39,999 nucleotides of DNA from Spirochaetales bacterium (GTDB lineage: Bacteria; Spirochaetota; Spirochaetia; DSM-27196; PWMO01): the NCBI GenBank assembly GCA_007123465.1, contig SKLB01000228.1:1-39999 (forward strand), written 5' to 3'. Position 1 is the first letter of the stretch, and each line of letters starts with the position of its first letter. Below, one piece after another: positions 14,000 to 39,999 of the stretch. The notes beneath the pieces were generated by a model. The model saw nothing but the letters and a program-made list of their open reading frames with translations. It was not told the DNA's origin and searched no databases. The position numbers and the translations under genes are program-made.

Positions 14000-14019
14000 C
14001 CGCCGGCAGGGGTGCCGGT

Positions 14020-14048
14020 TTGACAGTAGTCTGGAAACCTCGTATTGT
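14020..14048 (+). promoter_or_regulatory. Sigma-70-like promoter TTGACA-N17-TATTGT for the TM-TPR/MPE/ParB-like operon
   Basis: TTGACA at 14020-14025 and TATTGT at 14043-14048. A 6-bp inverted repeat CCGGCA-GGGG-TGCCGG (14003-14018) lies just upstream. Confidence 0.35.
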
Positions 14049-14089
14049 TGTTCTGGCATGTTCTACTCTCTTACACCAACGGTGCTGCC

Positions 14090-24749: not shown

Positions 24750-25502
24750 TCACAGTATCCCGCCGCCGATACGAAGCGTATTGAGCGGCGTCTCGGCCAC
24801 ATCCTGGATTAAACGGTAGAGTACGCTTCGGGCGTTCTGCAGCGCCGCGTCGTCGAGACCGATCTTCAGCGCCGCTGAGAACTCCAGCCGTCCGCTGTAC
24901 TGCAGGTAGTCCGCCGCTGCCCGGCCCAGGGCAGTGACCGTGCCGGGCTGGGCGCAGCTGGCGCAGACGAAACCGGTCTGCCGCGGTTCGTAGTAACGCC
25001 TTGAATCTGCTGCCAACCCGGCTCCGCAGTCGGCGCACACGCCGAGTTCCGGCTGCAGTCCGGCGGTCTCCAGGTAACGCCACAGGAACTGGATACTGAC
25101 CGGGCGGAAATCGGCAGCGCTATCGAGAGCCCGCAGCGCGTCCAACAGCAGCGTAAACAGTCGGTCGCTCTCAGCCCCTCCGCCAAAGGTCTTGAGCACC
25201 AACTCGGCCCACAAAGACGCGCTGTAGAACCGCGTGACCGATTCACGCAGCCCGGAAAAGAAGTCATTCACGCTGAGATCGGTGATCTTGATGCTCTTCT
25301 TGACCGGATCGGTGTAGAGATAACAGTGTCCGTAGCAGAACGGATTGGTAACGCCGCGCAATTTTCCCTTCTGCGAGTAGGCCCCGTGCGCAATTGCGGA
25401 CAGCAGCCCCTGCTGCGGGGTAAGCATGGTCACACCCTTGTGGATATCCCCGATACGCGAGTTCTTCAAAATAATGACGTCGGTTGCACTGTTACGGTTC
25501 AT
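24750..25502 (-). CDS. recO: DNA repair protein RecO
   Basis: N-terminal OB region DVIILKNSRIGDIHKGVTMLTPQQG, and the zinc-finger pairs CADCG...CASC. Confidence 0.85.
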   Translation of the reverse strand: MNRNSATDVIILKNSRIGDIHKGVTMLTPQQGLLSAIAHGAYSQKGKLRGVTNPFCYGHCYLYTDPVKKSIKITDLSVNDFFSGLRESVTRFYSASLWAELVLKTFGGGAESDRLFTLLLDALRALDSAADFRPVSIQFLWRYLETAGLQPELGVCADCGAGLAADSRRYYEPRQTGFVCASCAQPGTVTALGRAAADYLQYSGRLEFSAALKIGLDDAALQNARSVLYRLIQDVAETPLNTLRIGGGIL

Positions 25503-25516
25503 TGTCGGTTTGCCGC

Positions 25517-25546
25517 TTGACTGCACTTACAGGCCATAGTCATATT
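25517..25546 (+). promoter_or_regulatory. Possible sigma-70-like promoter for lon (TTGACT-N18-CATATT)
   Basis: TTGACT at 25517-25522 and CATATT at 25541-25546, about 40 nt upstream of the lon ATG with AAGGTG RBS. Confidence 0.3.
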
Positions 25547-25585
25547 ATACCAAGTACACAGCTATCTAGCTCACAAGGTGAAACA

Positions 25586-27943
25586 ATGTCGAGTCCACAC
25601 GCAATCATTCCGGCTGACCAGATTCTGCCGGCCAAGCTTCTTGTTATCCCGTTATCGGGTAAGCCGATCTTTCCCGGGATCTTTACCCCCATGATGATCA
25701 CTTCACAGGAGGATATTGCGGTAATCGAGCAGTCGCTGGCAGGCGACAGCATGATCGGGCTTACCCTGTTGCGCGATGAAGATACACAAGAGCCTACCGG
25801 CGACGACCTGCATCAGGTGGGAACGGTGGCCAAGATCATGAAAAAAATCAACCTGCCCGACGGTGGTCTCAACATATTTGTCTCAACGCTGAAGCGCTTC
25901 CGCATCAAGAAAGTGCTGAACCGCAGCGGGCCGATTGCCGTAGCCGTTGAATATCTCGAAGACAACTACGATTCGGCAACCGGAGATGAAATCAAGGCGC
26001 TGACGCGCTCGCTGATTGGCGAGATGAAGCAGGTCTCCGAAAACAACCCGCTGTTTTCCGAGGAGATGCGGCTGAATATGGTCAACATTGACCACCCGGG
26101 GAAGATTGCAGACTTCTCCTGCTCAATTCTCAACATCGATCGTGAGGACCAGCAGCGGATTCTGGAAACCTCCGATGTCAAGAGCCGAATGGAGCAGGTG
26201 CTGATCCACATCAAGCGCGAACAGGAACTCTTGCGCCTGCAGAAGAAGATCCAGCAACAGATCAACGAGAAGATCGAGAAAAGCCAGCGCGAATACTTTC
26301 TCAAAGAGGAGCTCAAGGCCATCAAGCAGGAACTCGGCATGCCGGTGGACGCAAAGAGTTCTGAGCACCAGCGCTTCCGGGACGAAATCGAAAAGCTGCA
26401 GCTCTCAGCCGAAGTGCGCGAACAGGTCGAGCAGGAACTCGAGAAGTTTTCTTTGACCGAGCCGAGCTCGCCGGAGTTCCAGGTAACACGCAACTACCTC
26501 GACACCATCATCAATCTACCCTGGAACGATCCCAAACCCGAACAGATCGACATCCGACGCGCCGAACGCATACTGAACGCCGACCACTACGGGCTCGAGG
26601 ACGTCAAGGAGCGCATACTCGAGTTCCTGTCGGTGCGCAAGCTGAAACAGGACGCCAAAGGGTCGATAGTCTGCCTGGTTGGACCTCCCGGAGTTGGTAA
26701 GACATCGGTGGGTAAGTCGATTGCCAGGGCGCTCGGCAAGCAGTTCTTCCGATTCTCGGTTGGCGGTATGCGCGACGAAGCCGAAATCAAGGGACACCGA
26801 CGCACCTACGTCGGCGCAATGCCCGGCAAGATCATTCAGGGCCTGAAGGCGGTCAAAACCAACGATCCGGTGTTCATGATCGATGAAATCGACAAGCTCG
26901 GGGCATCGTTCCAGGGAGACCCATCATCGGCGCTGCTCGAAGTGCTCGATCCCGAGCAGAACGTGGCGTTCCGCGATCACTACCTGGACCTGCCGTTTGA
27001 TATCTCCAACATCTTCTTCATCACCACCGCCAACACGCTCGACAGTATCCCGGCGCCGCTGCGTGACCGCATGGAGATCATCCGCCTGTCGGGTTATATC
27101 GATGACGAAAAAGTTGCCATCGCACGCAAGTATCTGCTTCCAAAATCGCTGCAGCGCGCCGGCCTCGGCAAACGCGATGTCAAGTACAGCAAGAAGTGTC
27201 TGCTTCAGATTGCCAACGGTTACGCCCGCGAAGCCGGCGTCCGTAACCTCGAAAAGGCCCTGGACCGCATCCACCGCAAACTTGCCCACCGCGTGGTACT
27301 GGAGCAGGAGCAGCAGCCGTTTACTATCGAGGTCGAGCAACTCGATGACCTGCTGGGCAAGCGCATCTTCAAAGATGACCTGGAGCGGCGCAGCACGGTT
27401 GCCGGAACCGCCACCGGCCTGGCGTGGACTCCGCACGGCGGTGACGTGCTGGTGATCGAAGCGGTCAGCAATCCGGGCAAAGAAGGCTTTCACATAACCG
27501 GCCAGATGGGCGACGTAATGCAGGAGTCGGCGCGCATCGCCTACACCTGGGTCCGCCATATAGCCGAACGCTTCAAGGTGCCGGCAGAATACTTTGAGCA
27601 GCGCCAGATCCATCTGCACATCCCCGCCGGCGCTACACCCAAGGACGGACCATCTGCCGGCATCACTATGGCGGCCAGCCTGTTGTCACTGGCAACCGAC
27701 AAACGTGTACGCACCCGCCTGGCGATGACCGGTGAGCTTTCATTGGTGGGCACGGTTCTGCCGGTTGGCGGACTCAAGGAAAAGACCATCGCCGCACGCC
27801 GTTACAAGATCAAAGAGCTCATTATCCCCAAAGAGAATGAGCGCGATCTTGAAGACATTCCGCAGCACATTAAACGCGGCATAACGTTCCACGCGGTGCG
27901 TACCATGGACGAGGTCGTTGAAAAAATCTTTCAAACCCGGTAA
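25586..27943 (+). CDS. lon: ATP-dependent Lon protease (LonA)
   Basis: LON N-domain (LLVIPLSGKPIFPGIF), Walker A GPPGVGKTS, Walker B VFMIDEIDK, protease site KDGPSAGITM with the downstream Lys. Confidence 0.95.
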   Translation: MSSPHAIIPADQILPAKLLVIPLSGKPIFPGIFTPMMITSQEDIAVIEQSLAGDSMIGLTLLRDEDTQEPTGDDLHQVGTVAKIMKKINLPDGGLNIFVSTLKRFRIKKVLNRSGPIAVAVEYLEDNYDSATGDEIKALTRSLIGEMKQVSENNPLFSEEMRLNMVNIDHPGKIADFSCSILNIDREDQQRILETSDVKSRMEQVLIHIKREQELLRLQKKIQQQINEKIEKSQREYFLKEELKAIKQELGMPVDAKSSEHQRFRDEIEKLQLSAEVREQVEQELEKFSLTEPSSPEFQVTRNYLDTIINLPWNDPKPEQIDIRRAERILNADHYGLEDVKERILEFLSVRKLKQDAKGSIVCLVGPPGVGKTSVGKSIARALGKQFFRFSVGGMRDEAEIKGHRRTYVGAMPGKIIQGLKAVKTNDPVFMIDEIDKLGASFQGDPSSALLEVLDPEQNVAFRDHYLDLPFDISNIFFITTANTLDSIPAPLRDRMEIIRLSGYIDDEKVAIARKYLLPKSLQRAGLGKRDVKYSKKCLLQIANGYAREAGVRNLEKALDRIHRKLAHRVVLEQEQQPFTIEVEQLDDLLGKRIFKDDLERRSTVAGTATGLAWTPHGGDVLVIEAVSNPGKEGFHITGQMGDVMQESARIAYTWVRHIAERFKVPAEYFEQRQIHLHIPAGATPKDGPSAGITMAASLLSLATDKRVRTRLAMTGELSLVGTVLPVGGLKEKTIAARRYKIKELIIPKENERDLEDIPQHIKRGITFHAVRTMDEVVEKIFQTR

Positions 27944-27953
27944 GAGTTCCCGT

Positions 27954-28847
27954 ATGAGCGATGTTCGATCAGCTCCGTTTCCTGGTACGACGCACCGTGG
28001 GGCCGGAAGGCCGTTCAAGACAGTGTCTGCTGCTGCTGCAGCCGTACTGCTACTCGCCGGATGCAACGCTGCGCGCGACGTCAATGCAGAACGGCCCGCG
28101 CCAAGCGCAGACGAACCTGTGCTCCACTCGGCATTCAGCCTGACCGAGGAGCAGTTGCTGCAGATGGTGGAATCACAGCCTGATCCGCTGCCGGCGCGCG
28201 TTGCCGAGCACCCGCAACGCTTCCTGGAACTGGCTGATTCGGTCCTCGATCTGGAGCACGATTTCATACTGCTGGTCGATAAACAGCACCCGTTGCCGCC
28301 GGACTATCAGCCCGCTGACCTGGTGTCGTTGAGCGACTACGGCGGTCGCATCGGCTACGCGGCAGCTGACCGAACGGTACGCGAGGCAATTGTGGACGAT
28401 CTGCTGGCGATGGCCGAAGAGGCCCGCGAAGACGGCGTGCACCTGCTGGTTCAGTCGGCCTATCGCTCCTGGAACTATCAGCAGACCCTCTTCAACAACT
28501 ACGTGGCGCGGCACGGCGAAGAAGCCGCCGAGCGTTTCTCGGCCCGGCCGGGGCACTCGCAGCACCAGCTGGGCAGCGCGGTTGACTTTGCGCCGATTGG
28601 CCACCAGTTCAGCGGCACGGAGGATGACCTCTGGCTGCGCGAGAACGCCTGGCGCTTTGGTTTCTCGCTTTCCTATCCGGACGGCTTGGAAGCGATCACC
28701 GGCTACATCTATGAGCCGTGGCACTACCGCTGGATCGGCCGTGATGCCACACAACTCGAACGCGAGTTCTTCGGCGGGATCCAGCAGCATATGCTCGAGT
28801 TCCTGCACACCCACGCAGACACCCTGCGCGCCGCACGGGCCCAATAG
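27954..28847 (+). CDS. VanY/M15-family D-alanyl-D-alanine carboxypeptidase lipoprotein
   Basis: Lipobox LLLAGC. SAYRSWNYQ, PGHSQHQLGSAVDF (SxHxxGxAxD zinc site) and EPWHYRW. Confidence 0.8.
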   Translation: MSDVRSAPFPGTTHRGAGRPFKTVSAAAAAVLLLAGCNAARDVNAERPAPSADEPVLHSAFSLTEEQLLQMVESQPDPLPARVAEHPQRFLELADSVLDLEHDFILLVDKQHPLPPDYQPADLVSLSDYGGRIGYAAADRTVREAIVDDLLAMAEEAREDGVHLLVQSAYRSWNYQQTLFNNYVARHGEEAAERFSARPGHSQHQLGSAVDFAPIGHQFSGTEDDLWLRENAWRFGFSLSYPDGLEAITGYIYEPWHYRWIGRDATQLEREFFGGIQQHMLEFLHTHADTLRAARAQ

Positions 28848-28857
28848 CGCGCCGGCT

Positions 28858-30096
28858 ATGGAACTGCTGTCACCCGCCGGCAATAGCGAGAAACTGCGTT
28901 GGGCCTACCTCTGGGGCGCTGATGCCGCCTATATCGGGCTACACGGGTTCTCACTGCGTTCGCGCGCCGACAACTTTGGCCTGCAGGAGTTCGCCGGGCT
29001 CAAGCGGATCAAGGCCGGGAGGCGGCTCTACTGCGCACTGAACATCTATTTCTTTGACCACGATATCACCGCGCTCGAGCGTGCGCTGGACCAGGTGGAC
29101 CACGGTATCTTTGACGCGTTTATTGTAAGTGACCTCGGCATCCTTCCCACGCTGCGGCGCCGCTTCCCGGATACCGAACTGCACCTGTCAACCCAGGCCA
29201 ACTGCATCAACAGCGACGCTGCGCGCTTCTATCGCGACCTGGGTTTCTCGCGTGTGGTACCCGGGCGGGAGCTGTCGCTGGCGCAGATTGCCGCAATCAA
29301 GAACACGGTTCCGGATCTGCAGCTGGAGGTGTTTGCGCACGGAGCGATGTGTCTGGCCTACTCGGGGCGCTGCTTTCTGAGCCGCTGGATGAGTGACCGG
29401 TCTGCCAACCAGGGAGACTGCGCGCACTCGTGCCGCTGGAACTACCGGCTCGGTGTCGATCCGCTGGTCCTGGAAGAACAGCAGCGTCCCGGTGAGTATT
29501 ATCCGATTATCGAAGCCGACAACTTCACCGAGATTCTCTCCTCGCGAGACCTCTGCATGATCGACCACCTGGCTCAGCTGCGCGATGCCGGTGTCGACAG
29601 CCTCAAGATCGAAGGGCGCATGAAGTCGGTCTACTATACAGCGGTAGTCACTCGCGCCTATCGCGCGGCGCTCGATGCGTTTTCCGCACCCGATCCCCGC
29701 GCACTTGAGTTCAGTGCGGAACTCGATGAAGTCAGCCATCGAGAATACACCACCGGCTTCTACTTTGACCGCGAGGCAATCGAGCGCCCGGCCGCCCGCG
29801 GTTATCGCCGCGGCTACCTGTTTCTCGGAGCGGTTGAGGAGAGAGTTGGGGTGCGGCGCTACCGCATCTCGGTCAAGAATGCGTTCTCCATCGGACAGGA
29901 AATAGAGTTTCTCGGTCCACGCAGCACAACACTGAGCGACAGAGCGTTTGTGCTGCTGGACGCCGAGCACAACCCGGTCAAACAGGCAATTCACCAAGGA
30001 ACCTGGTACCTCGAAACCGACTGCGCCGTTGACGCGGGCTACCTGATCCGTACCCGACTGCCTAACGCAGGGTCCGCACCCGGGCCAGCGTTGTAG
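28858..30096 (+). CDS. Peptidase U32-family protein
   Basis: MELLSPAGN start typical of the family, and an exact U32 signature EVFAHGAMCLAYSGRC. The ORF-track start at 28390 is an out-of-frame overlap with the VanY gene. Confidence 0.85.
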   Translation: MELLSPAGNSEKLRWAYLWGADAAYIGLHGFSLRSRADNFGLQEFAGLKRIKAGRRLYCALNIYFFDHDITALERALDQVDHGIFDAFIVSDLGILPTLRRRFPDTELHLSTQANCINSDAARFYRDLGFSRVVPGRELSLAQIAAIKNTVPDLQLEVFAHGAMCLAYSGRCFLSRWMSDRSANQGDCAHSCRWNYRLGVDPLVLEEQQRPGEYYPIIEADNFTEILSSRDLCMIDHLAQLRDAGVDSLKIEGRMKSVYYTAVVTRAYRAALDAFSAPDPRALEFSAELDEVSHREYTTGFYFDREAIERPAARGYRRGYLFLGAVEERVGVRRYRISVKNAFSIGQEIEFLGPRSTTLSDRAFVLLDAEHNPVKQAIHQGTWYLETDCAVDAGYLIRTRLPNAGSAPGPAL

Positions 30097-31030
30097 CGGC
30101 CAGTTCCTCAAGCGGCGCCAGCCGACGCGTCAGATAGCCGGCTATCACTTCGGCTTCCATCACACTATCCAGCGCCGAAACGAGTTCGGCGCGCAACATC
30201 TCGCAATCAGCGCCCAGGCGATTGAGCCGCTGTTGCAGCGGAGCATCTGCCAGAAACTCCGCCCGGTTACCGGCGTGCCGCGCTGCAGCGTGCAGGCCGG
30301 CGGTGGCCTTACGCAGTGTACGCCATGACTCTTCGGTGAACCGATCGAGCCGTTCCGCGCTCTCAGCCACCGGACAAACCAGCGCAGCGAGCCCACAGTT
30401 ATCACCCGCACTGAGATCAAACGCCCGCGCAATACTCGCCTCGATCGGTTGGAACTCATCGGATGCCGGCGCGGAATCCGGCGCCGGCGGCTGCAGCAGC
30501 GGCTCGATCCCGCGCGAGCGCAGTAGTTGCTGCAGCGGCTGCACGAAGCGCCGACGGTAGGCGTCCTGCAGCTTCTGATCGCCGCAACTGCCAACCGCGC
30601 CCAGTGCAATACGCGCAACATCTCCTGTCACTGCCAGCAGATCTTCGACCACGCGTTCGGCCATTCGCAGCGCCGCAGCCAGAGAAACGTCCATCTCACG
30701 CCAATCGCTTGAAATACGCGCCAGACGGGCAAAGTTTTCAACCCGGTCCAGCACGCGCGGCAGACCGTGGCGCGCCAGGTGAGGCACAAGCGTAACGTTG
30801 GATCGTGCCGCAACCGAGCAGATGCCTTCGATCTCCTTTTCGCTGAACGATCCAGGTCCTGCCAGTCTGGCATCGATGTTCCAGGGAAAACTCTCCTCCC
30901 AGTCAACCACCAGCTCCTGTACCCCTGCGTCAGACAGCAGCGGCAGCAGCCGACACAGGTGGTCGGCTCTGGGTGGAATGCCGCGGAAACTGAGTTCAAG
31001 CGTGCCTGCCTCTCCGATTGTTGACCGCAT
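30062..31030 (-). CDS. Hypothetical protein, with a weak resemblance to the GH20/HEXDC-like TIM-barrel N-terminal half
   Basis: 322-aa ORF. ELVVDWEESFPWNID recalls the LLEWEDMFPY-type motif of HEXDC-like hexosaminidases (recollection). The 3' end overlaps the U32 gene by 35 nt. Confidence 0.45.
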   Translation of the reverse strand: MRSTIGEAGTLELSFRGIPPRADHLCRLLPLLSDAGVQELVVDWEESFPWNIDARLAGPGSFSEKEIEGICSVAARSNVTLVPHLARHGLPRVLDRVENFARLARISSDWREMDVSLAAALRMAERVVEDLLAVTGDVARIALGAVGSCGDQKLQDAYRRRFVQPLQQLLRSRGIEPLLQPPAPDSAPASDEFQPIEASIARAFDLSAGDNCGLAALVCPVAESAERLDRFTEESWRTLRKATAGLHAAARHAGNRAEFLADAPLQQRLNRLGADCEMLRAELVSALDSVMEAEVIAGYLTRRLAPLEELAATTLARVRTLR

Positions 31031-31133: not shown

Positions 31134-32468
31134 ATGCAGAGCTTTCAAGAATCGTTTGCAGAGATAGGATTGGCGGTTCCAGATATCTGGTTGCCAGCTG
31201 AAGGGACCGATCTGGAACGCTGGGCGGTCATCGCGTGCGATCAGCACACATCGGATCCTGGTTACTGGGAGCAGGTAGAGAAAAAGGTGGGCAATGCACC
31301 GTCCACGCTGGCGCTGATTTTTCCCGAAGTCTACCTCAACGCGCCCGATGCTGGCGCCCGTATGCACAACGTAGCACAAGCCATGCAGCGTTACGTTGAC
31401 CAGGGAGTGCTGCAGAGCAGCGGGCCTATGGCGGTGCTGGTGGACCGCCAGACTCCGCAGGTTGCCCACCGCACGGGGCTGGTGCTGGCCGTTGACCTGG
31501 AACACTACGACTACCGGCCCGATTCCACGTCGCTGATCCGTGCCAGCGAAGGAACCATTCTGGAGCGCCTGCCTCCGCGCGTCAAGATTCGCAGACAGGC
31601 CAGTTTCGAATTCCCGCACGTGCTTATCCTCATCGACGATCCCGAGAGAACCGTGATCGAACCGTTGTGCCGTGACCGCGATTCGTTTGAGCGGCTCTAC
31701 GATACCAGGTTGATGCTCGGCGGCGGCTCGGTGCGCGGCTACGCGGTACGCGAACCGCAGCATTTACAGCGTATCGCCCATGCCCTGCACAAACTTCGCG
31801 ATCCGGCACGATTGAAGGCGCGCTATGATCGCGACGATGCGATGCTGTTTGCCGTTGGCGACGGCAACCACTCGCTGGCAACCGCCAAGCAGGTCTGGGA
31901 AGAGAAGAAGTCCGCCGGCAGCCCCCTGGCCGACGACCCGGCACGCTACGCGCTGGTCGAAATCATCAACATGCACGATCCCGGCCTGCACGTCGAACCG
32001 ATTCACCGCGTAGTCGATGGCATTGACGCCCAGATGCTGGCTGATACGCTACGCTCGGCAATTAAATCCGGCAAGGAACCGGAGCTGATGACGCCCGGGC
32101 AGGCGGTTGAGCGCGTGCTGCAGACATCCCAGCCGCCGCGCAGTTTTGCGCTGCTGGACGGTGAGCGAGCGCTGTGCTACACCCTGCCCGATGGCTCAGC
32201 ACTGTCCCCCGCGGTGCTGGTGCAGCAAACACTCGAGAGCTTCGAGCAGACCGGCAGCGCCAACGTCGAGATCGACTATATTCACGGTACCGAGGCGATT
32301 ATGGAGCTCAGTCGCCGTGAGGGTTCGCTTGGATTGCTGGTGCCACCGATTGAGGCCGAGTCGCTGTTTCAATACGTTGCCAACAACGGTCCGTTACCGC
32401 GCAAGATTTTTTCGCTGGGAGAGGCGGAAGAAAAGCGCTACTACTTTGAGTCACGGCGAATCGTCTGA
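31134..32468 (+). CDS. DUF1015-family protein
   Basis: LERWAVIACDQHTSDPGYWE and FAVGDGNHSLATAK match the conserved DUF1015 blocks (ACDQ.T and DG.H) as I recall them. Confidence 0.55.
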   Translation: MQSFQESFAEIGLAVPDIWLPAEGTDLERWAVIACDQHTSDPGYWEQVEKKVGNAPSTLALIFPEVYLNAPDAGARMHNVAQAMQRYVDQGVLQSSGPMAVLVDRQTPQVAHRTGLVLAVDLEHYDYRPDSTSLIRASEGTILERLPPRVKIRRQASFEFPHVLILIDDPERTVIEPLCRDRDSFERLYDTRLMLGGGSVRGYAVREPQHLQRIAHALHKLRDPARLKARYDRDDAMLFAVGDGNHSLATAKQVWEEKKSAGSPLADDPARYALVEIINMHDPGLHVEPIHRVVDGIDAQMLADTLRSAIKSGKEPELMTPGQAVERVLQTSQPPRSFALLDGERALCYTLPDGSALSPAVLVQQTLESFEQTGSANVEIDYIHGTEAIMELSRREGSLGLLVPPIEAESLFQYVANNGPLPRKIFSLGEAEEKRYYFESRRIV

Positions 32469-32869
32469 AGCAGGAAGAACGCCAGCAGCGCTGAGCTGAG
32501 CGCCAGCGCCCGAAACAGGTTTCGATCCGCACTCCAGCGCTCGGGTTGCGCCAGTTTCTCCCCGGCAGACTCCGCCGGTTCTACGGCGCCGACGCGGCCG
32601 GGAATGCGGATCAAACCCTCGGATTGGCCCACGTAGCCCATTCGTCGCGCTTCGATTCGAATCTGCTGCGGATCCGAACGCAGTCTCCGCGCTGAAGCTG
32701 AGAGCTCATTCTGCAGCTCGGTGAGTTCTTCGATGTGTGATACCAGAGTGTCGCGATACTCCGAGAGCCCCGCGTACGCCAACAGCCCGCGTTCGCCAAA
32801 AAATAGCGTCATCAGGAGATAGATCCAGGCGGCGATCGCCAGCGAGAGTCCAAGATTCTTAACTATCAC
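32441..32869 (-). CDS. FtsB/DivIC-like septum formation initiator
   Basis: Single N-terminal TM LSLAIAAWIYLLMTLFF, then a coiled coil LVSHIEELTELQNELSASARRL and the DPQQIRIEARRMGYV motif typical of the family. The 3' end overlaps DUF1015 by 28 nt. Confidence 0.6.
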   Translation of the reverse strand: MIVKNLGLSLAIAAWIYLLMTLFFGERGLLAYAGLSEYRDTLVSHIEELTELQNELSASARRLRSDPQQIRIEARRMGYVGQSEGLIRIPGRVGAVEPAESAGEKLAQPERWSADRNLFRALALSSALLAFFLLQTIRRDSK

Positions 32870-32908
32870 ACTTCTGAGTTACGGAACAAACAGCGACACT
32901 CTTTAATG

Positions 32909-32938
32909 TTGACAACCGAAATTGCGTTGCAGTACAGT
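32909..32938 (+). promoter_or_regulatory. Sigma-70-like promoter TTGACA-N18-TACAGT
   Basis: TTGACA at 32909-32914 and TACAGT at 32933-32938, in the 146-bp divergent intergenic region. Confidence 0.35.
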
Positions 32939-32948
32939 GAGAAACGTG

Positions 32949-32976
32949 TCAACAGCACTCTGTTCGATGCCGATAA
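32949..32976 (+). promoter_or_regulatory. Sigma-28 (FliA)-type promoter: TCAA-N16-GCCGATAA
   Basis: GCCGATAA at 32969-32976 matches the sigma-28 -10 consensus 8/8. TCAA at 32949-32952 matches TAAA 3/4. The ATG lies 39 nt downstream with a GGGAG RBS at 33002-33006. Confidence 0.5.
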
Positions 32977-33015
32977 GAAAATTGATGAACCCCATGTTCC
33001 CGGGAGATAACTGAA

Positions 33016-34695
33016 ATGGAGCTCGAGCAGTACGGAGTCTGGGTCAAAGCGGGGCCTGAAGACGTAGCGGACGACAATGAAGAGATGTTCGCTCTCTCAG
33101 ACGTTGGTGACGACGTCGATCAGGACACGTTCGCTGAGTCGAGCCATCTTACCTCCGAAGAAGAGGATCTGCTGGCATCGCTCGAAGAGGAAGAGCCCGC
33201 TGCAGAGCAGCCCGCCGCTGTGGCAGAGTCCGCTGACGGCGATCAAGATTTTTCCTTTGATCTCGACCAGGACGACGAAACACTGGAAGACAGCCTCTCG
33301 CTGGATGACTTCACACTCGATGATATTGAGCTCGATGACATGTCGATCCCGGCCGAAGAGTCCGCAGCAACCGCTGATCTGGAGGATGACCTGAGCCTCG
33401 AGGACACCGCAGAGGAACTGCCCGAACTCGACATCGAAAGCGATGAAGGATTCGACGACCTCGACGCAGTCACGCGCGAGATGACCGACAACAGCTCCGC
33501 GCCGCCCGCCCCCGACGGCTCTCAACGCCCAGCAGCAGAACCGATCGGCGGGATAGAAAGCGAGCTCGCGTCAATCAAGGCCGAGCTCCAGGCGCTGCGC
33601 GAAGAGCTGGCCGAGATCCGCAGCGGTGCAGGCCCCGCCCCAGCCGACGCAACCGGCCCAACCGGGAGCGCTATCGACAGCAGCGAGGAACCGCAGATAA
33701 GTGCCGGGTTCTTTGAGGAAGACGAAGACGAAACAATCGCGCTCACCGATGATGAGCTCGACAACATCCTGAACACCGCAGAGTTTACCGAGGAACTGGG
33801 CAAACCAAGCGCAGTTGACGATGTCGATGAGGCCGAGCCAGCTACCGAGCCGCTCGAGCAGGCCGACCAGATCAGCCTCGAGCAACTCGATGACGTGGAG
33901 ATGATCGATCTCTCGGATGAATCCGGCGAGGAAGCATCGCAGTGGGAAGATCAGTCGCTGCACGGTGGTGACATTCTCGCGCCATCCAGCTTTGACGAAG
34001 AGATCACTCTGGAAGATGAAGACGACGCCGACCTTCAAGACAGCGAAACCGCTACTGAGCTCTTCGTTGGAACACAAAAGGACGTAGACGCGCTGGCCGA
34101 CATGGACATCGATAGCGAACTCGCGGGCATTGAAGAGCTGCGCGATGACGAAGATGACTATCAAGATGCTGCGCAGGAGACGGGCGCAGCGGAGTTGGAC
34201 TCGCTCGAGATAGACGTACTCGAAGCCGCCCCCGACGAAGACGAGTCTGCAGAATCTGCAGAGGATCTCTCATTAGACAGTCTCGATACGCTTGAAGCAT
34301 CCGGTGAAGAGTTGGAGCTGGCCGAAGCCGCAGATGACGAAGACCAAAGTGGTGGTCTCGAGCTGGATTTGGACGATATCGGCGATGATGCGCCGTTTGA
34401 TCTCAGCGACGAAGACGAGCTGACTCCCTCTTTCCAGGCCGATGACACCGAAGACCTGGACCTGGACATCGATCTGGATGAGGGCCCGCAGCAGCCGGCC
34501 GCTGAGGCACCATCAACAACGGAGTCGTTTCCCTCTGACCTGCGCGAAGAAATCCGCTCGGTGCTGCAGTACATGGACCAGCTGCTCGAGTCGCTGCCGG
34601 AGGAAAAGATCGAAGAGTTTGCGCGTTCAGAGCATTTCGAAGTATACAAGCGGCTCTTTGAGGAACTCGGGCTCGACGCGCCTGGTGCAGAGTAA
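33016..34695 (+). CDS. Polyacidic, low-complexity (probably intrinsically disordered) protein with one short coiled coil and a compact helical C-terminal domain
   Basis: 559 aa. About 36 D/E in the first 100 residues, and only 15 K+R in the whole protein. Recurring L-[DE]-[DE]-x-[LI]-[DE] units. ELASIKAELQALREELAEIRS coiled coil. Ordered-looking C-terminus DLREEIRSVLQYMDQLLESLPEEKIEEFARSEHFEVYKRLFEELGL. Confidence 0.8.
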   Translation: MELEQYGVWVKAGPEDVADDNEEMFALSDVGDDVDQDTFAESSHLTSEEEDLLASLEEEEPAAEQPAAVAESADGDQDFSFDLDQDDETLEDSLSLDDFTLDDIELDDMSIPAEESAATADLEDDLSLEDTAEELPELDIESDEGFDDLDAVTREMTDNSSAPPAPDGSQRPAAEPIGGIESELASIKAELQALREELAEIRSGAGPAPADATGPTGSAIDSSEEPQISAGFFEEDEDETIALTDDELDNILNTAEFTEELGKPSAVDDVDEAEPATEPLEQADQISLEQLDDVEMIDLSDESGEEASQWEDQSLHGGDILAPSSFDEEITLEDEDDADLQDSETATELFVGTQKDVDALADMDIDSELAGIEELRDDEDDYQDAAQETGAAELDSLEIDVLEAAPDEDESAESAEDLSLDSLDTLEASGEELELAEAADDEDQSGGLELDLDDIGDDAPFDLSDEDELTPSFQADDTEDLDLDIDLDEGPQQPAAEAPSTTESFPSDLREEIRSVLQYMDQLLESLPEEKIEEFARSEHFEVYKRLFEELGLDAPGAE

Positions 34696-34698
34696 GCC

Positions 34699-35768
34699 AT
34701 GAAGACCGAAGGACTGCTGCGCAGGGCGATTCGCATTCAGAATAGCGGCAGCCCGAGCGGGGCTGCTACGCCGTCGCACGCCCAGGTTCAGCCACAAAAA
34801 AAAAAGCGCTCGCCGAGCTTCTCCGTGAGGCGCCTGCGGTTGACCAGCCGGTCGAGAACCTCGATGCGGAAGCTGCAGTTGCCCACCTGCTGAGAGAGTT
34901 TGAGACTATCCACACCGGCTTCGACGCGCCGGTACGCGTGTTCTCACTGTTGTGCCGGGATCTCGGGATAGAAAAAGGTGCATTGCTCCTGCCGGACTAT
35001 GACGGCGTACATTTTGCGCCGTGGGCTCTGCGCGGTATCGACAGCACCTCCGAGCGGCGCATGCAGATACCGTCAGCCATGCTGCAGGAAATGTGTGATG
35101 TCACCGCGGTTGATATCCTGCAGGCTGAACGCCTCGAGCCGTGGCGGCGCTACTTCTCTTTCCGCGAAGGTTCAATGTTGAAGCATCTGGCGCTGATCCC
35201 ATTCTGCGTTGACAGCTCGCCGTTGGCAGTGATCCTTATTGCAGCCAGTCCCTACCTGCAGGTCGAACACATCGCTATTCGCCTGATTGTCTCAGCAATT
35301 CGCGAGCGCGCACTCGCTCTGATTCTGCACGATCATGAAGCCCGCGTACGGGCCCGCTTCCGTCACGTACTGAGCGCGCACAACGACATTGTGCAGCGTA
35401 TCAGCGAAGAGCTCGAGCGACCGGATGTCACCTCGGTCACTGCGGTGGTAATCGAAGTGGCAACGCTGCTGACCGCAGTCAGCGACAGTAACCATGACGC
35501 TGATCGATATCACCTGCAGCAGGATCTGCTGCGGATAATTGGATCGATGGTGGAGGATAGTGCCACAGCCGGCCTGTCGGCGCCGGGCAGGATTGTGCTG
35601 ATTCTGCAACCAGGCCTTGCGCTGGGTCCGGAACTGCTGGTTCACCAGCTGCAGTTGTCGTTGGCGGAGCTGTTTCAGGAGCTGCCCCAACCGATTGACC
35701 TCAAACCACGCTACAAGACAATAACGCGTGACGTAGCTGCCGTCGACGAACTGCTGTCTTCACCCTGA
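34699..35768 (+). CDS. GAF-like domain protein split at an A10 tract (ORFs 34699-34893 and 34938-35768). A continuous 356-aa product requires a -1 shift at A_AAA_AAG
   Basis: ATG lies 3 nt after the upstream stop. After the A-tract, the -1 frame reads KKKALAELLREAPAVDQPVENLDAEAAVAHLLREFETIHTGFDAPVRVFSLLCRDLG... straight into the 276-aa ORF. The 0 frame instead gives R/S-rich junk and stops at 34893. The -1 frame is closed upstream by TAG at 34743 and has no ATG/GTG/TTG before 34938. Confidence 0.5.
34796..34805 (+). repeat. A10 homopolymer (slippery tract) inside a coding region of a high-GC genome
   Basis: Ten consecutive A, read in frame as CAA AAA AAA AAG, which contains the heptamer A_AAA_AAG at 34800-34806. 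Confidence 0.9.
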
Positions 35769-35783
35769 ACCGGTGGTGTCTCA

Positions 35784-37355
35784 ATGATCAAAATCATGCA
35801 CGCACGCAACGGACAGCTCGCGGCTCAGGCCGACGGCAGGGCGCTGTATTCACGCTACGATCCGGCTGCCGAGGCGATGCGCTTTGTCAGGCGCGAACTC
35901 GCCGCAGCGCAACAGTGCACCACTGTCGTGATTCTCGGTGAAGGGCTGGGGTACCTCACGGCGGCGCTGCGCACTCTGCAGCCTGCTGCACGAATCGTTG
36001 CGGTCCATCTGAACGCAGCGCTTTTCGCCAGGCGAATCTGCGATGCCGATCAGCAGTGGTGCGTCGCAGAACCAGGACGGATCACCTTCGAGCAATTCCT
36101 CGAACAACAGATCGCCGATGAAGAGATCGACGGGCTGGTGTTGCTGACGTGGGAACCGTGCACGCGCGCATTTGCAGCTCAGGCGGAACCGATCGCGGCG
36201 GCAGTGCGCAACTTCCTCGATCAGCGCTCCGCCACTCTGGCCACCGAGCGCTATTACGGCGCACGCTGGATCAGTAACAGTGTTGTGAACGCAATTGAGC
36301 TGCAGCCGTTACCGCGTATCAAGGGCAGAAACGCTCCGGTGGCGATCGCGGCCGGCGGTCCTTCCCTGCCGGAGTCGTTGGAGCTGCTCAAGCAGCGAGA
36401 CCGCGGGGTATCACTCTGGGCGCTGCCCTCGGCGCTTCCCATTCTGTTGCACGCCGGATGCCCTCCCGATCTGGTTGTTACCACCGACGCCGGTTTCTAC
36501 GCCACACACCACCTGCGCCAGCTGCGCACCTGGCCAAACATACCTCTGGCCGCTCCGCTGTCGGCCGCGTTGATATTGCAGGTGCGCCGCCGCCCGACGC
36601 TGATTCTCAACCAGGGAAGCTGGTTTGAGCACGACCTGCTCTCCGATTGCGGTCTGCCGTGGGTTGCAGTCCCGGCGCACGGAACGGTAGCCGGTTCAGC
36701 CTGGTACCTGGCCGCCGCACTTGGGGCAACCGAAGTAGTGTTTGCAGGGTTAGACCTCTGCATTCGCGACATCCGGTCCCATCCGCGCGGCCATGCCTTC
36801 GAGCCACTGCTGTATAGCGGGGAGCAGCGGCTGCGTCCCTTGCACCATGTCCTGTTTGAGCGCAACGTTACAGCGAGCGAACGCATCGCAGCAGCATCGA
36901 TCGAGCGGACTTCGCGTGCGCTGCGCACGTACGCTGCCTGGTTTCGCGGCCACGCTGCCGCGATGCCAATTCCCGCTTCGCGCCTGGCTCCTTCACCGGT
37001 TGACACCGCTCTGGCGCCGTGTCACCGTCTGCCGCGCTGCGCCGATGCCGGGTACGCAGGCCCGGGGACACCGGCCGGTACCGTCGACCGCCGCCATGCG
37101 CTGCACCAACGTCTCTGCACCTGGCAGCTTCAGACAGAAGAGCTGAACTCTGCGTTCTGCACCGCTGGCACACAGCGAGATCAACAGCAGCAGCGCCTGC
37201 TGGCCATGGCGCGCACCGTTGACACCGCCGGATATCTCCAGGCGCTGCGAGCGCTGCGCAACAACGATCAGCCCGACAAGCGTGTGCAACGGTTGCAGCG
37301 GCGTCTGCAGCAGTTCTTTGACCACTTGCGGCGACGGGTGGAGCAGGCCGCGTGA
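35784..37355 (+). CDS. DUF115 / Maf (motility-associated factor, MptE-like) family protein, paralogue 1
   Basis: N-terminus ALYSRYDPAAEAMRFV, core PVAIAAGGPSLPESLELLK...PDLVVTTDAGFY...HGTVAGSA...GATEVVFAGLDL is typical of Maf-type putative flagellin glycosyltransferases. Confidence 0.7.
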   Translation: MIKIMHARNGQLAAQADGRALYSRYDPAAEAMRFVRRELAAAQQCTTVVILGEGLGYLTAALRTLQPAARIVAVHLNAALFARRICDADQQWCVAEPGRITFEQFLEQQIADEEIDGLVLLTWEPCTRAFAAQAEPIAAAVRNFLDQRSATLATERYYGARWISNSVVNAIELQPLPRIKGRNAPVAIAAGGPSLPESLELLKQRDRGVSLWALPSALPILLHAGCPPDLVVTTDAGFYATHHLRQLRTWPNIPLAAPLSAALILQVRRRPTLILNQGSWFEHDLLSDCGLPWVAVPAHGTVAGSAWYLAAALGATEVVFAGLDLCIRDIRSHPRGHAFEPLLYSGEQRLRPLHHVLFERNVTASERIAAASIERTSRALRTYAAWFRGHAAAMPIPASRLAPSPVDTALAPCHRLPRCADAGYAGPGTPAGTVDRRHALHQRLCTWQLQTEELNSAFCTAGTQRDQQQQRLLAMARTVDTAGYLQALRALRNNDQPDKRVQRLQRRLQQFFDHLRRRVEQAA

Positions 37356-39010
37356 ACATCCTGCAGAAGAATCTTGCCACGTTGTCCCTGCGGCATGCGG
37401 CGCTCTCAAAACGGCTGACAGAGCTGCGCCCGAGTTCCCGGGTGCGCTTCAGCGCCAGCCGTGCCGGACCGCTCTACGCGGTTATTGGAGACGAACGAGA
37501 GACCGCGCTGCACTCGCGCTTCGATCCACGCCGCGAGGCCTCACGGCTGGTAGCCGGCAGCCGCAGCTCGGGCTTCTGCCTCGTCCTGGGCCTGGGCCTG
37601 GGGTATCATGTCCGTGAACTACTGTGCCAGCCTCACCTCCAGCGTGCGCTGATTATTGAGTATGACGGCGCGCTGCTGCGCGCCATTCTCGAGCGGCAGG
37701 ATCTGAGTGATGTGTGGCAGGACAGTCGGGTTCAGCTCTATGTCGATCAAGCGCCACACGCCGTTGCCTCCGCTATTGCGCAGCACTACGTTCCGGTTCT
37801 TCACGGCAATCTTTCAACCCTGCTGTTGCGCGGCAGGTTTGACTGTGACCGAGCGCTGTTCAGCGATGCAGGGACAGCTGCTTCCGAGGCCGCCGAAGCT
37901 GCCGGTGCTGACCTCAGCGTGCAGCGCGTCTTTGGCCGCCAGTGGATGCGCAACATCATCACCAACAGCCTTGCCTGCCCGGTACAACCCGGCTTGCCGC
38001 GTTGCCGCAGCGCGATTGTCAGCGCAGCCGGACCGTCGCTGGACAACAAAATCGACGCCATAGCACGACGCAAAGCGGACCAGTTGCTGATTGCCACCGA
38101 TACATCGCTGCCGCGACTGCTGGGCGCCGGCATCCGGCCGGATCTGGTGCTTGCTATCGACTGCCAGCTGGCATCGTATCTGCACGTGCTGGCTACCGCC
38201 AAACAGCAGCTGACACTGGTAGCTGACGCCGGGGTCCATCCGGCGCTTACGCGCCGTTTTTCGGCCGTACATCTGATCGGCGGAGGCCATCCGCTGCTCG
38301 CTTATCTACGCACCGAGGGCGTCCCGATAACCTGGCTTGATACCTCCGACGGCAGCGTAACTCACGCCGCGGTTCGTCTGGCGGTCCAGCTCGGAGCCAA
38401 ACAGATCGAGGTCCACGGCGCCGATTTCTGCTATCCGCGCGGCAGCGCGTACGCCCGCGGCAGCTACATTCATAGTCACATGATCGGCCGTGCCCGGCGC
38501 ACAGTGCCATACGCCAGCGGTCTGTACCGCTTTGTGCTCGAGCGCCCCGAACTTGAACTCGACCAGATAGACGGCCACTGGGCCTACACCACAAAGGTGA
38601 TGCGTCACTACCACCAACGTTTTACAAATCTGCAAGCGGAACTAGGGGCGCGCATCGTACGCCCAATCGGCGGTGCGCGAATCGACAGCGGCACCGTGCA
38701 GTCCGGCGTGCAGGATCACCGCTGCAGCGAGCACGGCGCACCCGCGCCGCTGAACACTGCCGGCGACACTGCTGCAGGTAACGCTCACTCCGTGCTTGGC
38801 GCCTATCGCCGGGCGCTGGCACAGATCCCCACTGTACACGATCCGCTGTGGTTCTACTTTGATCAGAGCACGGCCGCCGAGCGGCGCCTGTGGCAGACGC
38901 TGTTTCCTCTGGCGGCGTTCTTCTCGGCTCAGTCAAGGCCCGTTGGAACCGCGGCGCTACTCGAACACACCCGCGATAGCGCACTGCAACTGCTCAAGCA
39001 GCTGGTATAG
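37352..39010 (+). CDS. DUF115 / Maf family protein, paralogue 2
   Basis: LHSRFDPRREASRLV, SAIVSAAGPSLDNKIDAI...LLIATDTSLPRLLGAGIRPDLVLAIDCQ...GSVTHAAVRLAVQLGAKQIEVHGADF. The GTG start overlaps the upstream stop (GTGA). Confidence 0.7.
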   Translation: MNILQKNLATLSLRHAALSKRLTELRPSSRVRFSASRAGPLYAVIGDERETALHSRFDPRREASRLVAGSRSSGFCLVLGLGLGYHVRELLCQPHLQRALIIEYDGALLRAILERQDLSDVWQDSRVQLYVDQAPHAVASAIAQHYVPVLHGNLSTLLLRGRFDCDRALFSDAGTAASEAAEAAGADLSVQRVFGRQWMRNIITNSLACPVQPGLPRCRSAIVSAAGPSLDNKIDAIARRKADQLLIATDTSLPRLLGAGIRPDLVLAIDCQLASYLHVLATAKQQLTLVADAGVHPALTRRFSAVHLIGGGHPLLAYLRTEGVPITWLDTSDGSVTHAAVRLAVQLGAKQIEVHGADFCYPRGSAYARGSYIHSHMIGRARRTVPYASGLYRFVLERPELELDQIDGHWAYTTKVMRHYHQRFTNLQAELGARIVRPIGGARIDSGTVQSGVQDHRCSEHGAPAPLNTAGDTAAGNAHSVLGAYRRALAQIPTVHDPLWFYFDQSTAAERRLWQTLFPLAAFFSAQSRPVGTAALLEHTRDSALQLLKQLV

Positions 39011-39011
39011 A

Positions 39012-39836
39012 TCAGACCCAGAAACCGACGGCAGCGTAACCGACAAAGTTTGCATCACCGGACCGATCAAAGCTATTGGCATACCCCAACTCACGCCCGC
39101 GCTCTGCTCCCTGCGTCCTCGCGAAGGCAACTGCGGCGGCTGCGGCTCCAGGCGAGCAGGCCGACTGGTTACGCGCTGCATGTTCAAGCAGCGCCTCGGG
39201 GTCGGCCGCCACACTGCAGTCCAGAAAACCGCGGTCATTGACCGTCTCGGCCCATCGTCGGTTGCTCTCACGCGAACCCGGGCGCGTCAGAGCGAAACGC
39301 GGACCGTAGTGCGTCAAATCTGTTGACCCGACAACGGTCAGCTTGTGCTGCTCGGCCTCACGCGCCAGTAGCTGCCCCAGCGCTATCGCGCTGCGGTCAG
39401 CCGGAGCACGCAGCCAGACCACGCGTGCCCGGGGGAAGAGGTGGGCTATCAGCGGAAGATGAATTTCAACCGAGTTCTCGCGGCTGTTGTCGGCGCTAGT
39501 GGACAATTCGCCCCGGACCTTGTGCACTAGCTCGGTGTCGGACTCAACAACACCCAGCGGTGTCTCAAACCCCTGCTCAACAGCCACCAGAATCGGCTGT
39601 CCGGGGGCCAGGTGCCCACCGATCACCACAACGGTCCGTGCGTCCGGATCAAGCGCCCTCACACCGCGGTACGCAAGCTCACCCGAGAAGGCCCAACCGG
39701 CATGCGGCACAATTGCGGCACACGCGCCGCTGTCGTCGCTGATCTGATTGTGCCATTGCCGGCAAACCTCGCGCACCGCACCCGCGTCCGCAGGATACCA
39801 GCCGGCAGGCAGACCCCGCTGTCGGATAGTTGCCAT
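39012..39836 (-). CDS. Memo-family protein (AmmeMemoRadiSam system protein B-like)
   Basis: RQRGLPAGWYPAD and AIVPHAGWAFSG are the Memo N-terminal motifs, followed by VVVIGGHLAP and GSTDLTHYG. The start is taken at ATG 39836 rather than the ORF-track 39944. Confidence 0.7.
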   Translation of the reverse strand: MATIRQRGLPAGWYPADAGAVREVCRQWHNQISDDSGACAAIVPHAGWAFSGELAYRGVRALDPDARTVVVIGGHLAPGQPILVAVEQGFETPLGVVESDTELVHKVRGELSTSADNSRENSVEIHLPLIAHLFPRARVVWLRAPADRSAIALGQLLAREAEQHKLTVVGSTDLTHYGPRFALTRPGSRESNRRWAETVNDRGFLDCSVAADPEALLEHAARNQSACSPGAAAAAVAFARTQGAERGRELGYANSFDRSGDANFVGYAAVGFWV

Positions 39837-39883
39837 GACTTCATGATACACCGTATTCCGGTGTGGAGAAAAGTGTGGGAAGT

Positions 39884-39908
39884 GGTGCCGAAAATGTTGT
39901 TCGGCACC
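39884..39908. other. Perfect 9-bp inverted repeat upstream of the Memo-like gene (operator, or terminator of a gene beyond the window)
   Basis: GGTGCCGAA (39884-39892), a 7-nt loop, then TTCGGCACC (39900-39908). Confidence 0.3.
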
Positions 39909-39999
39909 AGCAGCGCCGGATCTCATCCCTGCGGTCCGCGCCACCGCTCTGCGTGACCCTCTGTCACCTCGTCAGCCCGCAGGAACCGTCTACGCCACC

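Follow-up and report, generated by a model that had tools for sequence, protein, structure and literature searches.

The stretch of DNA analyzed here, called the window below, is 39,999 nucleotides long (contig SKLB01000228.1 of assembly GCA_007123465.1) and comes from a genome of the soda-lake Spirochaetaceae type. On its plus strand we found a module of four co-directional genes (g1-g4, 33016-39010), the second of which, g2, is divided between two reading frames by a run of ten adenines (A10). As judged from sequence comparison, the real product of g2 is a protein that joins both frames at this tract, and the putative operon is conserved across the class Spirochaetia. We hold with high confidence that the module and its conservation are real, and it is quite probable that the frameshift is a genuine recoding feature. 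The evidence also leans towards a composite model, in which a late-flagellar operon of the sigma-28 class serves the glycosylation of FlaB flagellins and contains a recoded g2.

The first gene of the module (g1, 33016-34695, +) encodes a polyacidic and mostly disordered protein of the TP_0179 family with 559 amino acids (aa). In translation, g2 starts with a zero-frame open reading frame (ORF) of 64 codons from ATG 34699 (34699-34893, +) and has a body of 320 codons plus stop in the -1 frame (34806-35768, +), which comprises a GAF domain, a long helix and a degenerate GGDEF-like domain. The last two genes, g3 (35784-37355, +; 523 aa from ATG 35784) and g4 (37352-39010, +; 552 aa from GTG 37352), are Maf paralogues recognized by PF01973. 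The tight packing of the four genes described in the first-pass annotation of this DNA was confirmed, with 3 nucleotides (nt) between the g1 stop and the ATG of g2, 15 nt between the g2 stop at 35768 and the ATG of g3, and a GTGA overlap between the g3 stop and the GTG of g4.

Frame split in the second gene

The tract lies at 34796-34805 (+), where the zero frame reads ...CCA CAA AAA AAA AAG CGC... and stops after 64 codons; the tract codons CAA AAA AAA AAG contain the heptamer A_AAA_AAG. It is the longest homopolymer of the 40 kb, the next one being 7, and only about 0.004 such runs are expected from composition, while AAA makes up only 32% of the Lys codons in the window. The first-pass annotation had pointed to a slippery tract in this gene, and the A10 is indeed present, but a conserved and forced recoding was not recognized there. 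The -1 frame is open over 34746-35768 and has no ATG, GTG or TTG before GTG 34938.

The public annotation has two independent genes and no recoding, one being the 64-aa ORF and the other encoding 276 aa from GTG 34938, and gene callers give exactly such a split in the NCBI metagenome-assembled genome (MAG) and in several assemblies. We consider it very improbable that this annotation is right. From the tract to GTG 34938, a stretch of 132 nt (34806-34937) is conserved as protein in the -1 frame, both in P0003 and in the single-ORF locus L014, and it encodes part of a confidently folded GAF domain, including helix 21-32 and the start of helix 41-53. The -1 frame offers no start codon that would include this stretch. 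Distant orthologues have the same N-terminal motif, MGL[LMIYF]x[RK], together with the same body in one tract-free ORF (L014, P0131, P0132 and 26 genome loci). In g2 of the window the motif appears as MKTEGLLRRA, of which GLLRRA is kept in split and single-ORF relatives alike. The zero-frame tails after the tract, on the other hand, lack conservation and differ in length (about 30-90 codons overall).

The pattern of substitutions agrees with these observations. In a comparison of 11 related loci, the third codon position has the most substitutions on both sides of the tract, counted in frame 0 upstream of it (371 vs 178 and 152) and in the -1 frame downstream (1276 vs 658 and 487). The periodicity changes frame exactly at the tract, and selection acts on both frames. 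From the conserved 132 nt, the single-ORF orthologues, the periodicity switch and the non-conserved zero-frame tails, we conclude that the two frames are joined at the tract in the predicted product. It is proposed that only the first ~36 codons of the 64-codon ORF, up to the tract end, belong to full-length g2. The joined protein has 356 aa, with the junction ...QPQKKK/ALAELLREAP.... Public gene calls of g2 are systematically wrong (for example, L012:5217-6047 and L013:11575-12651): they are either cut to 261-276 aa from an internal GTG or ATG, or stretched to 358 aa, in the -1 frame, by a spurious start farther upstream, so that they overlap the end of g1.

We then surveyed the tract in 68 scorable genome loci, including the window, and in metagenome loci, four of which were re-read by eye. 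A10 with the body in the -1 frame is present in 29 genome loci (28 species genomes and the window) and in 11 metagenome loci. A11 with the body in the -1 frame was found in 0 genome loci and in 9 metagenome loci, comprising 7 from one hypersaline clade by contig source, plus L126 and L129. No tract and a single ORF are seen in 26 genome loci and 16 metagenome loci, and an in-frame tract in 12 genome loci (six A11, three A10, two A9 and one A8) and 11 metagenome loci (six A11 and five A10). The one other genome locus, to which no metagenome locus (0) corresponds, belongs to a Brucepastera isolate with a split A9 and further homopolymer frameshifts, and is unreliable. After duplicate removal there are 41 distinct split sequences, with A10, or with A11 in one clade, and every split case needs the -1 frame, equal to one extra A, with L001 as the sole exception. 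Across the split lineages the tract lies ~30-90 codons into g2. It occupies all three codon phases in different clades, and every phase contains A_AAA_AAN. A search of the metagenome collection with a degenerate DNA pattern (the tract plus downstream codons) gave no matches.

A neighbour-joining tree of the g2 body places the split clades among tract-free in-frame clades, and a Treponemataceae clade in the same tree carries in-frame tracts. In this Treponemataceae-type clade the in-frame run of A8-A11 encodes KKK just before a second GLLxR motif; the loci with in-frame tracts include L042, L049, L073, L080 and L085 (A11) as well as L030, L052 and L063 (A10). The homopolymer seems to be older than the frameshift, and the in-frame tracts of this clade may cause slippage-generated truncation too.

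One explanation for such a split is a sequencing or assembly error, the true genome having A11 and g2 being an ordinary single ORF, for homopolymers are error-prone and A11 would restore the g2 frame. Some observations do weigh in this direction and against genuine recoding. All surveyed sequences are metagenome assemblies except the isolate genome L065, and in this complete genome (Brucepastera parasyntrophica RmG11, L065:8141-9100) g2 has an A9 that needs the -1 frame and at least one more frame break near T8/A9 runs. These several homopolymer frameshifts of a long-read isolate represent either a decaying gene or long-read homopolymer errors. Moreover, L001, which is closely related, differs from its near relative L013 (A10) by an A9 with a +1 offset, and a -1 ribosomal slip could not rescue this arrangement. 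Nevertheless, we regard an error as highly unlikely. A10 is found in 5 of 5 independent assemblies of the same species, namely the window and L175-L178, which come from different samples and projects; the latter four match the window at 99.75-99.82% over 7.7 kb with 0 gaps. Other species replicates also agree on tract length (4/4, 3/3 and 2/2), and the 41 distinct lineages are split towards the same -1 frame with one exception. Tracts of A10 and A11 are also assembled in frame, in other clades. Among these, the in-frame A11 MAG L020 shares its soda-lake sediment scheme of isolate names with three split A10 MAGs (L017, L031 and L043), so the assemblers have no systematic tendency to lose an A. 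The state of a locus, split or in frame, goes with the gene tree and not with the data source.

The tract might also be a phase-variation switch at the DNA level, turning g2 on and off by slipped-strand mispairing. Campylobacter maf genes are phase-variable via homopolymeric tracts, and here too a gene of a Maf cluster has a homopolymer close to its 5' end; spirochaetes have tracts of in-frame as well as out-of-frame length, and the A9 of L001 differs from the A10 of L013. We think this unlikely, because the consensus is the OFF length in all 41 split lineages, never A12, with no ON allele seen inside those clades. The replicates of the same species show no variation in any of the four sets, leaving the A9 of L001 as the only variant, and downstream the ORF remains intact under purifying selection, which is hard to square with a gene that is OFF in almost all sampled populations. 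Genuine recoding of g2 is accordingly the reading that we keep below.

Proposed recoding mechanism at the tract

Two mechanisms could join the frames, and the protein that results would be the same with either. We favour transcriptional slippage by RNA polymerase, to which we give somewhat better than even chances on the strength of the tract comparison; for -1 ribosomal frameshifting we allow a considerable probability that stays below one half, and the two could co-occur. Bacterial RNA polymerase slips efficiently on runs of at least 9 A or T, mainly adding bases, and this run length matches the 9-10 bp RNA:DNA hybrid (PMC5009743). The g2 tract has the sequence features of a slippage site, being an uninterrupted A/T run of at least 9 with a downstream ORF out of frame and conserved in 41 lineages. 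In the split lineages (L001 aside) it always has 10 nt or more, where 7 would be enough for a ribosomal slip.

The counterpart of ribosomal frameshifting is Escherichia coli dnaX. An in-phase heptamer of the dnaX type is present, as A_AAA_AAG in the window and as A_AAA_AAN (AAG, AAA or AAC) in every tract, and this counts for the ribosome and against slippage. The heptamer A_AAA_AAG has the same phase in the window and most split relatives as in E. coli dnaX. The stimulators of a dnaX-type site, a downstream structure 5-9 nt away and an upstream element similar to a Shine-Dalgarno sequence, were not found. In the 33 split loci that were folded, no shared downstream RNA structure appeared (mean z -0.54), and an upstream Shine-Dalgarno-like element (5-mer) is present in only 3 of 41 split loci. 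Unlike E. coli dnaX, g2 thus has neither a conserved stem-loop at a functional distance nor the upstream element, and three extra A's are always kept. A local hairpin, GCGCUCGCC...GUGAGGCGC, directly follows the tract (34806-34833, +) and is predicted in the window, L002, L006, L009 and L016. We rejected it as a frameshift stimulator, for it starts 0 nt from the tract and is not conserved in the wider split group.

Slippage is therefore favoured by a tract of at least 10, by the lack of conserved structure and of a Shine-Dalgarno-like element, and by the fact that base addition is the habit of the polymerase. For the A9 of L001, with its +1 offset, a rescue would have to take place at the RNA level, and in this respect it counts for slippage. 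The known slippage sites, such as Thermus thermophilus dnaX, the Shigella mxiE and spa genes and the poly(A) rescue in endosymbionts, likewise keep a homopolymer of at least 9 with a frame offset that added bases rescue, and likewise give two products from one gene. In contrast to these, the frameshifted product of g2 is a long functional protein, and the gene family, the clade and the flagellar context are new. The g2 tract also differs in that its length stays at A10 or A11 in lineages with only ~25-30% protein identity, and slippage at g2 is a prediction from DNA sequence. We found no spirochaete or flagellar slippage case in the main text of the review PMC5009743, and none in our other literature searches.

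Candidate promoter, synteny and products of the module

In front of the module is a 146-nt gap (32870-33015), a divergent promoter region that also belongs to a DivIC-like gene (32441-32869, -). In this gap we found a candidate promoter of the sigma-28 type (32949-32976, +), consisting of TCAA (32949-32952), a spacer of 16 nt and GCCGATAA (32969-32976), the exact -10 box that the first-pass annotation had noticed; the ATG of g1 lies 39 nt downstream of GCCGATAA. As an 8-mer, GCCGATAA is not significant in the window (2 matches vs 0.95 expected), and its significance comes from conservation in relatives rather than from rarity. Of 63 species-representative spirochaete loci whose upstream sequence was usable, 37 have CCGATA[AT] on the plus strand within 250 nt upstream of g1, compared with a background of 0.06 per 250 nt and with 2 of 63 in the opposite-strand control. 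Nearly all of these boxes are at -37 to -47 from g1, with TTAA, TCAA or TTAT 15-17 nt upstream, and their position is kept although the surrounding intergenic sequence is unrelated between clades. The mapped sigma-28 promoter of Treponema denticola flaB2 has TTAA as -35 and CCGATAA as -10 (PMC9481697), and the -10 box of the module is identical to the latter. From this match and the positional conservation of CCGATA[AT], a sigma-28-class promoter for the module is well supported by comparison, and we infer that the module depends on sigma-28 in vivo.

The gap contains other candidate elements as well. A sigma-70-like promoter candidate, TTGACA-N18-TACAGT (32909-32938, +), has 10 of 12 consensus matches, and both of its hexamers are kept in L002, L003 and L006. 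A Shine-Dalgarno-like GGGAGA, read from the sequence, lies 8 nt before the ATG of g1 (33002-33007, +), and GGAGATAACTGA is invariant across four aligned loci. The whole divergent region 32870-33015 is unusually conserved, even compared with relatives whose proteins are ~50% identical, and its conserved blocks include CTTTAATGTTGACAA, CAGTAnAGTAAGAAACGT and TTGATGAAC. It may hold extra regulatory sites or the DivIC promoter besides the sigma-28 box. A second GCCGATAA at 6349-6356 (+) was rejected as a promoter; it is inside and antisense to a 759-aa minus-strand gene (5348-7627), and is probably a chance match.

For the analysis of synteny we used the C-terminal motif of g1, YMDQLLExLPEEKIxEFAxSEHFxVYKRLFEELGL, as probe. 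It gave 506 confirmed relatives in species-representative genomes, of which the best 80 were kept. All of these best 80 loci are from Spirochaetota, including Alkalispirochaeta, Oceanispirochaeta, Treponemataceae, Brucepastera and Treponema. The order g1, g2, Maf, Maf is found in nearly all of the 80, and g2 with one or two Mafs follows g1 wherever the contig is long enough. The close relatives found via g2 all have DUF1015, DivIC (-), the TP_0179-family gene, g2, Maf and Maf. The first-pass annotation had proposed examining this neighbourhood in related genomes and would have given up its view of the module had the genes not been syntenic; they are syntenic in essentially all 80 loci.

The g1 protein has 193 D+E vs 15 K+R, that is, 34.5% acidic residues over 559 aa. 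The protein P0007, 100% identical to g1, has a precomputed match to PF27359 (TP_0179; PF27359.1), as do all the homologues that were listed. The family namesake is a hypothetical protein of Treponema pallidum. Among the scored candidates there are 794 matches with E <= 0.001, and every named one in the top 120 is spirochaetal. The AlphaFold2 (AF2) model of g1, built from a 37-sequence alignment, has a mean pLDDT (the predicted local confidence of the model) of 48 and is mostly disordered. Helices are predicted only at 176-203, a probable coiled coil, at 245-259 and in a C-terminal three-helix unit at 507-551 (pLDDT ~80). The conserved motifs of the family are YGVWVK, GFFEEDEDETIALTxDELDNIL and YMDQLLExLPEEKIxEFAxSEHF, and a helix coincides with the second, invariant one. 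Our own Pfam and NCBIfam scans of g1 and g2 gave nothing usable, with only a weak FliG_C match (E 0.008) below the cut-off. The first-pass annotation could assign no function to g1 or g2. This still holds for g1, which is functionally uncharacterized; nevertheless, g1 belongs to a named family and g2 has a recognizable fold.

The literature that we searched on the function of TP0179-TP0182 mentions these genes only as hypothetical proteins or pseudogenes. TP0180 is listed as frameshifted or as a pseudogene in T. pallidum ssp. pertenue and Fribourg-Blanc compared with Nichols (PMC3265458, PMC3630124). Its number is next to that of TP0179; it is a possible orthologue of g2, whose frameshift might lie in a poly(A) tract.

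For g2, a profile search gave 254 cluster representatives, and the AF2 model built with 50 of them has a pLDDT of 91.3 and a predicted template-modelling score (pTM) of 0.86. The best Foldseek match of the model is the cytosolic part of PelD (4etx, E 1e-6, 338 aligned columns), and 4dn0 and 4etz also span both domains; after PelD the matches are many GAF domains. The C-terminal half has a marginal profile-to-PDB match to a GGDEF domain. In the profile alignment, the GGDEF signature is replaced by 'dsgrl' in the family consensus and by SAPGRIVLIL in the window, and the RxxD motif of the inhibitory site for cyclic di-GMP (c-di-GMP) is absent at the expected position of the family consensus. By inspection, neither the sequence nor the model has an obvious hydrophobic membrane segment. 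The joined protein is thus confidently predicted to fold as a GAF plus degenerate GGDEF protein with a PelD-like architecture, and it is probably soluble. The GAF-like call of the first-pass annotation was right in this respect and incomplete in missing the degenerate GGDEF domain, which came out of the structure prediction that it had itself suggested.

PelD of Pseudomonas aeruginosa is a c-di-GMP receptor that controls the synthesis of the Pel polysaccharide. It shares with g2 the order of a GAF followed by a degenerate GGDEF domain, and both are encoded beside glycosyltransferase machinery. They differ in the relative orientation of the domains in the g2 model (TM, the template-modelling score, 0.27), and g2 is not a member of the PelD family, since it is without the c-di-GMP RxxD site. 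Cluster annotations of the remote g2 relatives contain only 'hypothetical protein', and a protein search with Treponema-type g2 gave no named T. pallidum or T. denticola orthologue among its 2 matches. The protein of the window is 94% identical to one of 'MAG: Spirochaetaceae bacterium'.

The two Maf paralogues reported by the first-pass annotation are well above the cut-off of PF01973 (MptE-like/DUF115), with 65.3 bits for g3 and 91.9 bits for g4 against 34.6. Moreover, g4 matches the solved Magnetospirillum Maf 5mu5 (E 6.5e-5), in the catalytic core only, and reaches 20 bits with PF20157 (Maf_flag10_N), below the cut-off of 23.5, where g3 has no match. The NCBIfam PseD model matches weakly (22-25 bits vs a cut-off of 670). 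At only 25% identity over 443 aa, g3 and g4 are old paralogues, and g3 is conserved in position in relatives. Compared with the Mafs of Campylobacter, Helicobacter, Aeromonas and Magnetospirillum (5mu5), they share the PF01973 core, the side-by-side arrangement of paralogues and, here, a flagellar-class promoter motif. They differ in being very divergent, in belonging to an operon outside any flagellar or sugar-biosynthesis cluster, and in forming a pair that is fixed across a whole class, always behind two spirochaete-specific genes.

An accessory gene next to a Maf has a precedent in Shewanella oneidensis, where GlfM, a small cis-encoded non-enzymatic factor beside Maf-2, is required for flagellin binding and site specificity (bioRxiv 10.1101/2023.12.03.569772). 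Compared by size and fold, neither g1 nor g2 was found to be related to GlfM. While GlfM is a small four-helix-bundle protein, g2 is an alpha/beta two-domain protein of 356 aa, and g1 is a disordered acidic protein of 559 aa that is helical only at the C-terminus.

Surrounding genes and a proposed role in flagellin glycosylation

Downstream, the module is followed by a convergent Memo-like gene (39012-39944). The remaining window consists of housekeeping genes, such as those for CstA, MutL, RecJ, thymidine phosphorylase, TPR proteins, peptidase U32, DUF1015 and others. With Pfam we scanned the long ORFs as far as 24735 and the neighbours of the module, and 24750-28847 was assigned only via synteny with relatives (RecO, Lon, VanY). 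In these scans of the 40-kb window we found no genes for nonulosonic acid (the pse, leg and neu genes, as the first-pass annotation had also stated), flagellar structure or tRNA.

A 322-aa ORF without Pfam match (30062-31030, -) is kept between peptidase U32 and DUF1015 in close relatives, and in L014 a PF27487 (TP_0183_C) gene (L014:8388-9296) sits between DUF1015 and DivIC. Together, these two genes hint that the neighbourhood of the module corresponds to TP0179-TP0183 of T. pallidum. Elsewhere in the window, one protein (14045-15445, +) combines TPR repeats with a C-terminal Mrr_cat or inactive restriction-endonuclease-like domain, and two TPR-rich genes on the minus strand (11240-13201 and 13232-14059) adjoin it. 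The successive ORFs 16140-17072 (+), 17039-17830 (-) and 17710-19053 (-) have no Pfam match at E <= 1e-5, and their mutual overlaps suggest that at least one of them is not a real gene.

In the composite model, the operon would build a cytoplasmic machinery that O-glycosylates the FlaB core flagellins with nonulosonic acid before export. Spirochaete FlaBs carry an O-linked nonulosonic acid derivative, without which filaments are not assembled (PMC13439194; T. denticola work), and Mafs are known transferases of such sugars elsewhere and have been noted in T. denticola. The two ancient Maf paralogues would accordingly be the transferases, with FlaB as the inferred target. The partnership of g1 and g2 with the Mafs is suggested by the conserved gene order. 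By gene order and fold, the most likely role of g1 would be that of an intrinsically disordered polyacidic scaffold or chaperone-like partner of the Mafs, and g2, a presumably soluble protein of GAF and degenerate GGDEF domains, would most likely sense a ligand and act on the Mafs as regulator or adaptor. Full-length g2 would be made only if RNA polymerase adds one A on the tract, the favoured mechanism, or if the ribosome slips -1 on A_AAA_AAG; the unslipped product would be a short N-terminal peptide. Recoding would in this way set, and possibly regulate, a low fixed dose of g2 relative to the co-transcribed enzymes.

Several findings weigh against this model. The window has no nonulosonic-acid or flagellar genes, as given above, and the sigma-28 box was undetected in 26 of the 63 loci. 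A search of PDB sequences with the C-terminal profile of g1 gave no related solved structure; structure prediction, as proposed by the first-pass annotation, resolved the three-helix unit there. The replaced GGDEF signature and the missing RxxD motif of g2 also belong here. Finally, in the host-associated Treponema loci L051, L066, L075 and L083 we detected g1 and both Mafs and no g2 homologue, and in L075 the first Maf begins directly after g1. This suggests that g2 was lost in some lineages. Being missing from loci that keep g1 and both Mafs, g2 is not a core component of the module, and its dispensability in some Treponema fits a regulatory rather than a core role.

The operon may even be unrelated to flagellin, with the MptE-like proteins modifying some other substrate and g1 and g2 acting in unrelated signalling. 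The missing flagellar and nonulosonic-acid genes nearby are in line with such a reading, as are the scores of the flagellin-specific PseD model, far below the cut-off, and the fact that GAF- and GGDEF-like proteins are typical of second-messenger systems. On the other hand, the sigma-28 box is conserved in position, g4 is homologous to a solved flagellin glycosyltransferase Maf and matches Maf_flag10_N weakly, and the FlaBs of spirochaetes are known to carry O-linked nonulosonic acids. We therefore judge a role apart from flagellin to be rather unlikely, and retain FlaB glycosylation as the probable function.

Beyond the composite model, a bolder and clearly tentative idea, which we consider possible and still doubtful, is that the tract is an ancient and selected recoding switch, most probably by RNA polymerase slippage, that meters or conditionally gates the synthesis of a PelD-like small-molecule sensor, which together with the polyacidic TP_0179 protein might control when and where the two Mafs glycosylate the FlaB of the periplasmic flagella. 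The in-frame, out-of-frame and tract-free versions of the gene would then record repeated tuning of the dosage.

The Maf family, the logic of accessory factors and the slippage or dnaX-type sites are all known; what is new are the gene family, its context and the unusually deep conservation of the tract. In the g2 tract we have a clear example, of great phylogenetic depth, of an obligatory frameshift in a cellular gene that is not mobile. With matched natural controls, in which the same gene is in frame or tract-free, it is useful for studying how slippage or ribosomal frameshifting is recruited and lost. Current annotations of g2, too short where they begin at an internal GTG and too long where they begin at a spurious start, are systematically in error. 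FlaB glycosylation is essential for the periplasmic flagella that make spirochaetes motile and invasive, and what Mafs further require for flagellin recognition has so far been answered only for GlfM in Shewanella. With g1 and g2, the operon offers two conserved candidates that are specific to spirochaetes and accompany the Maf pair throughout the class, apparently under a flagellar late promoter. Should the bolder idea hold, spirochaetes would have in this module a flagellin glycosylation machine of their own, with four components and under the control of recoding.

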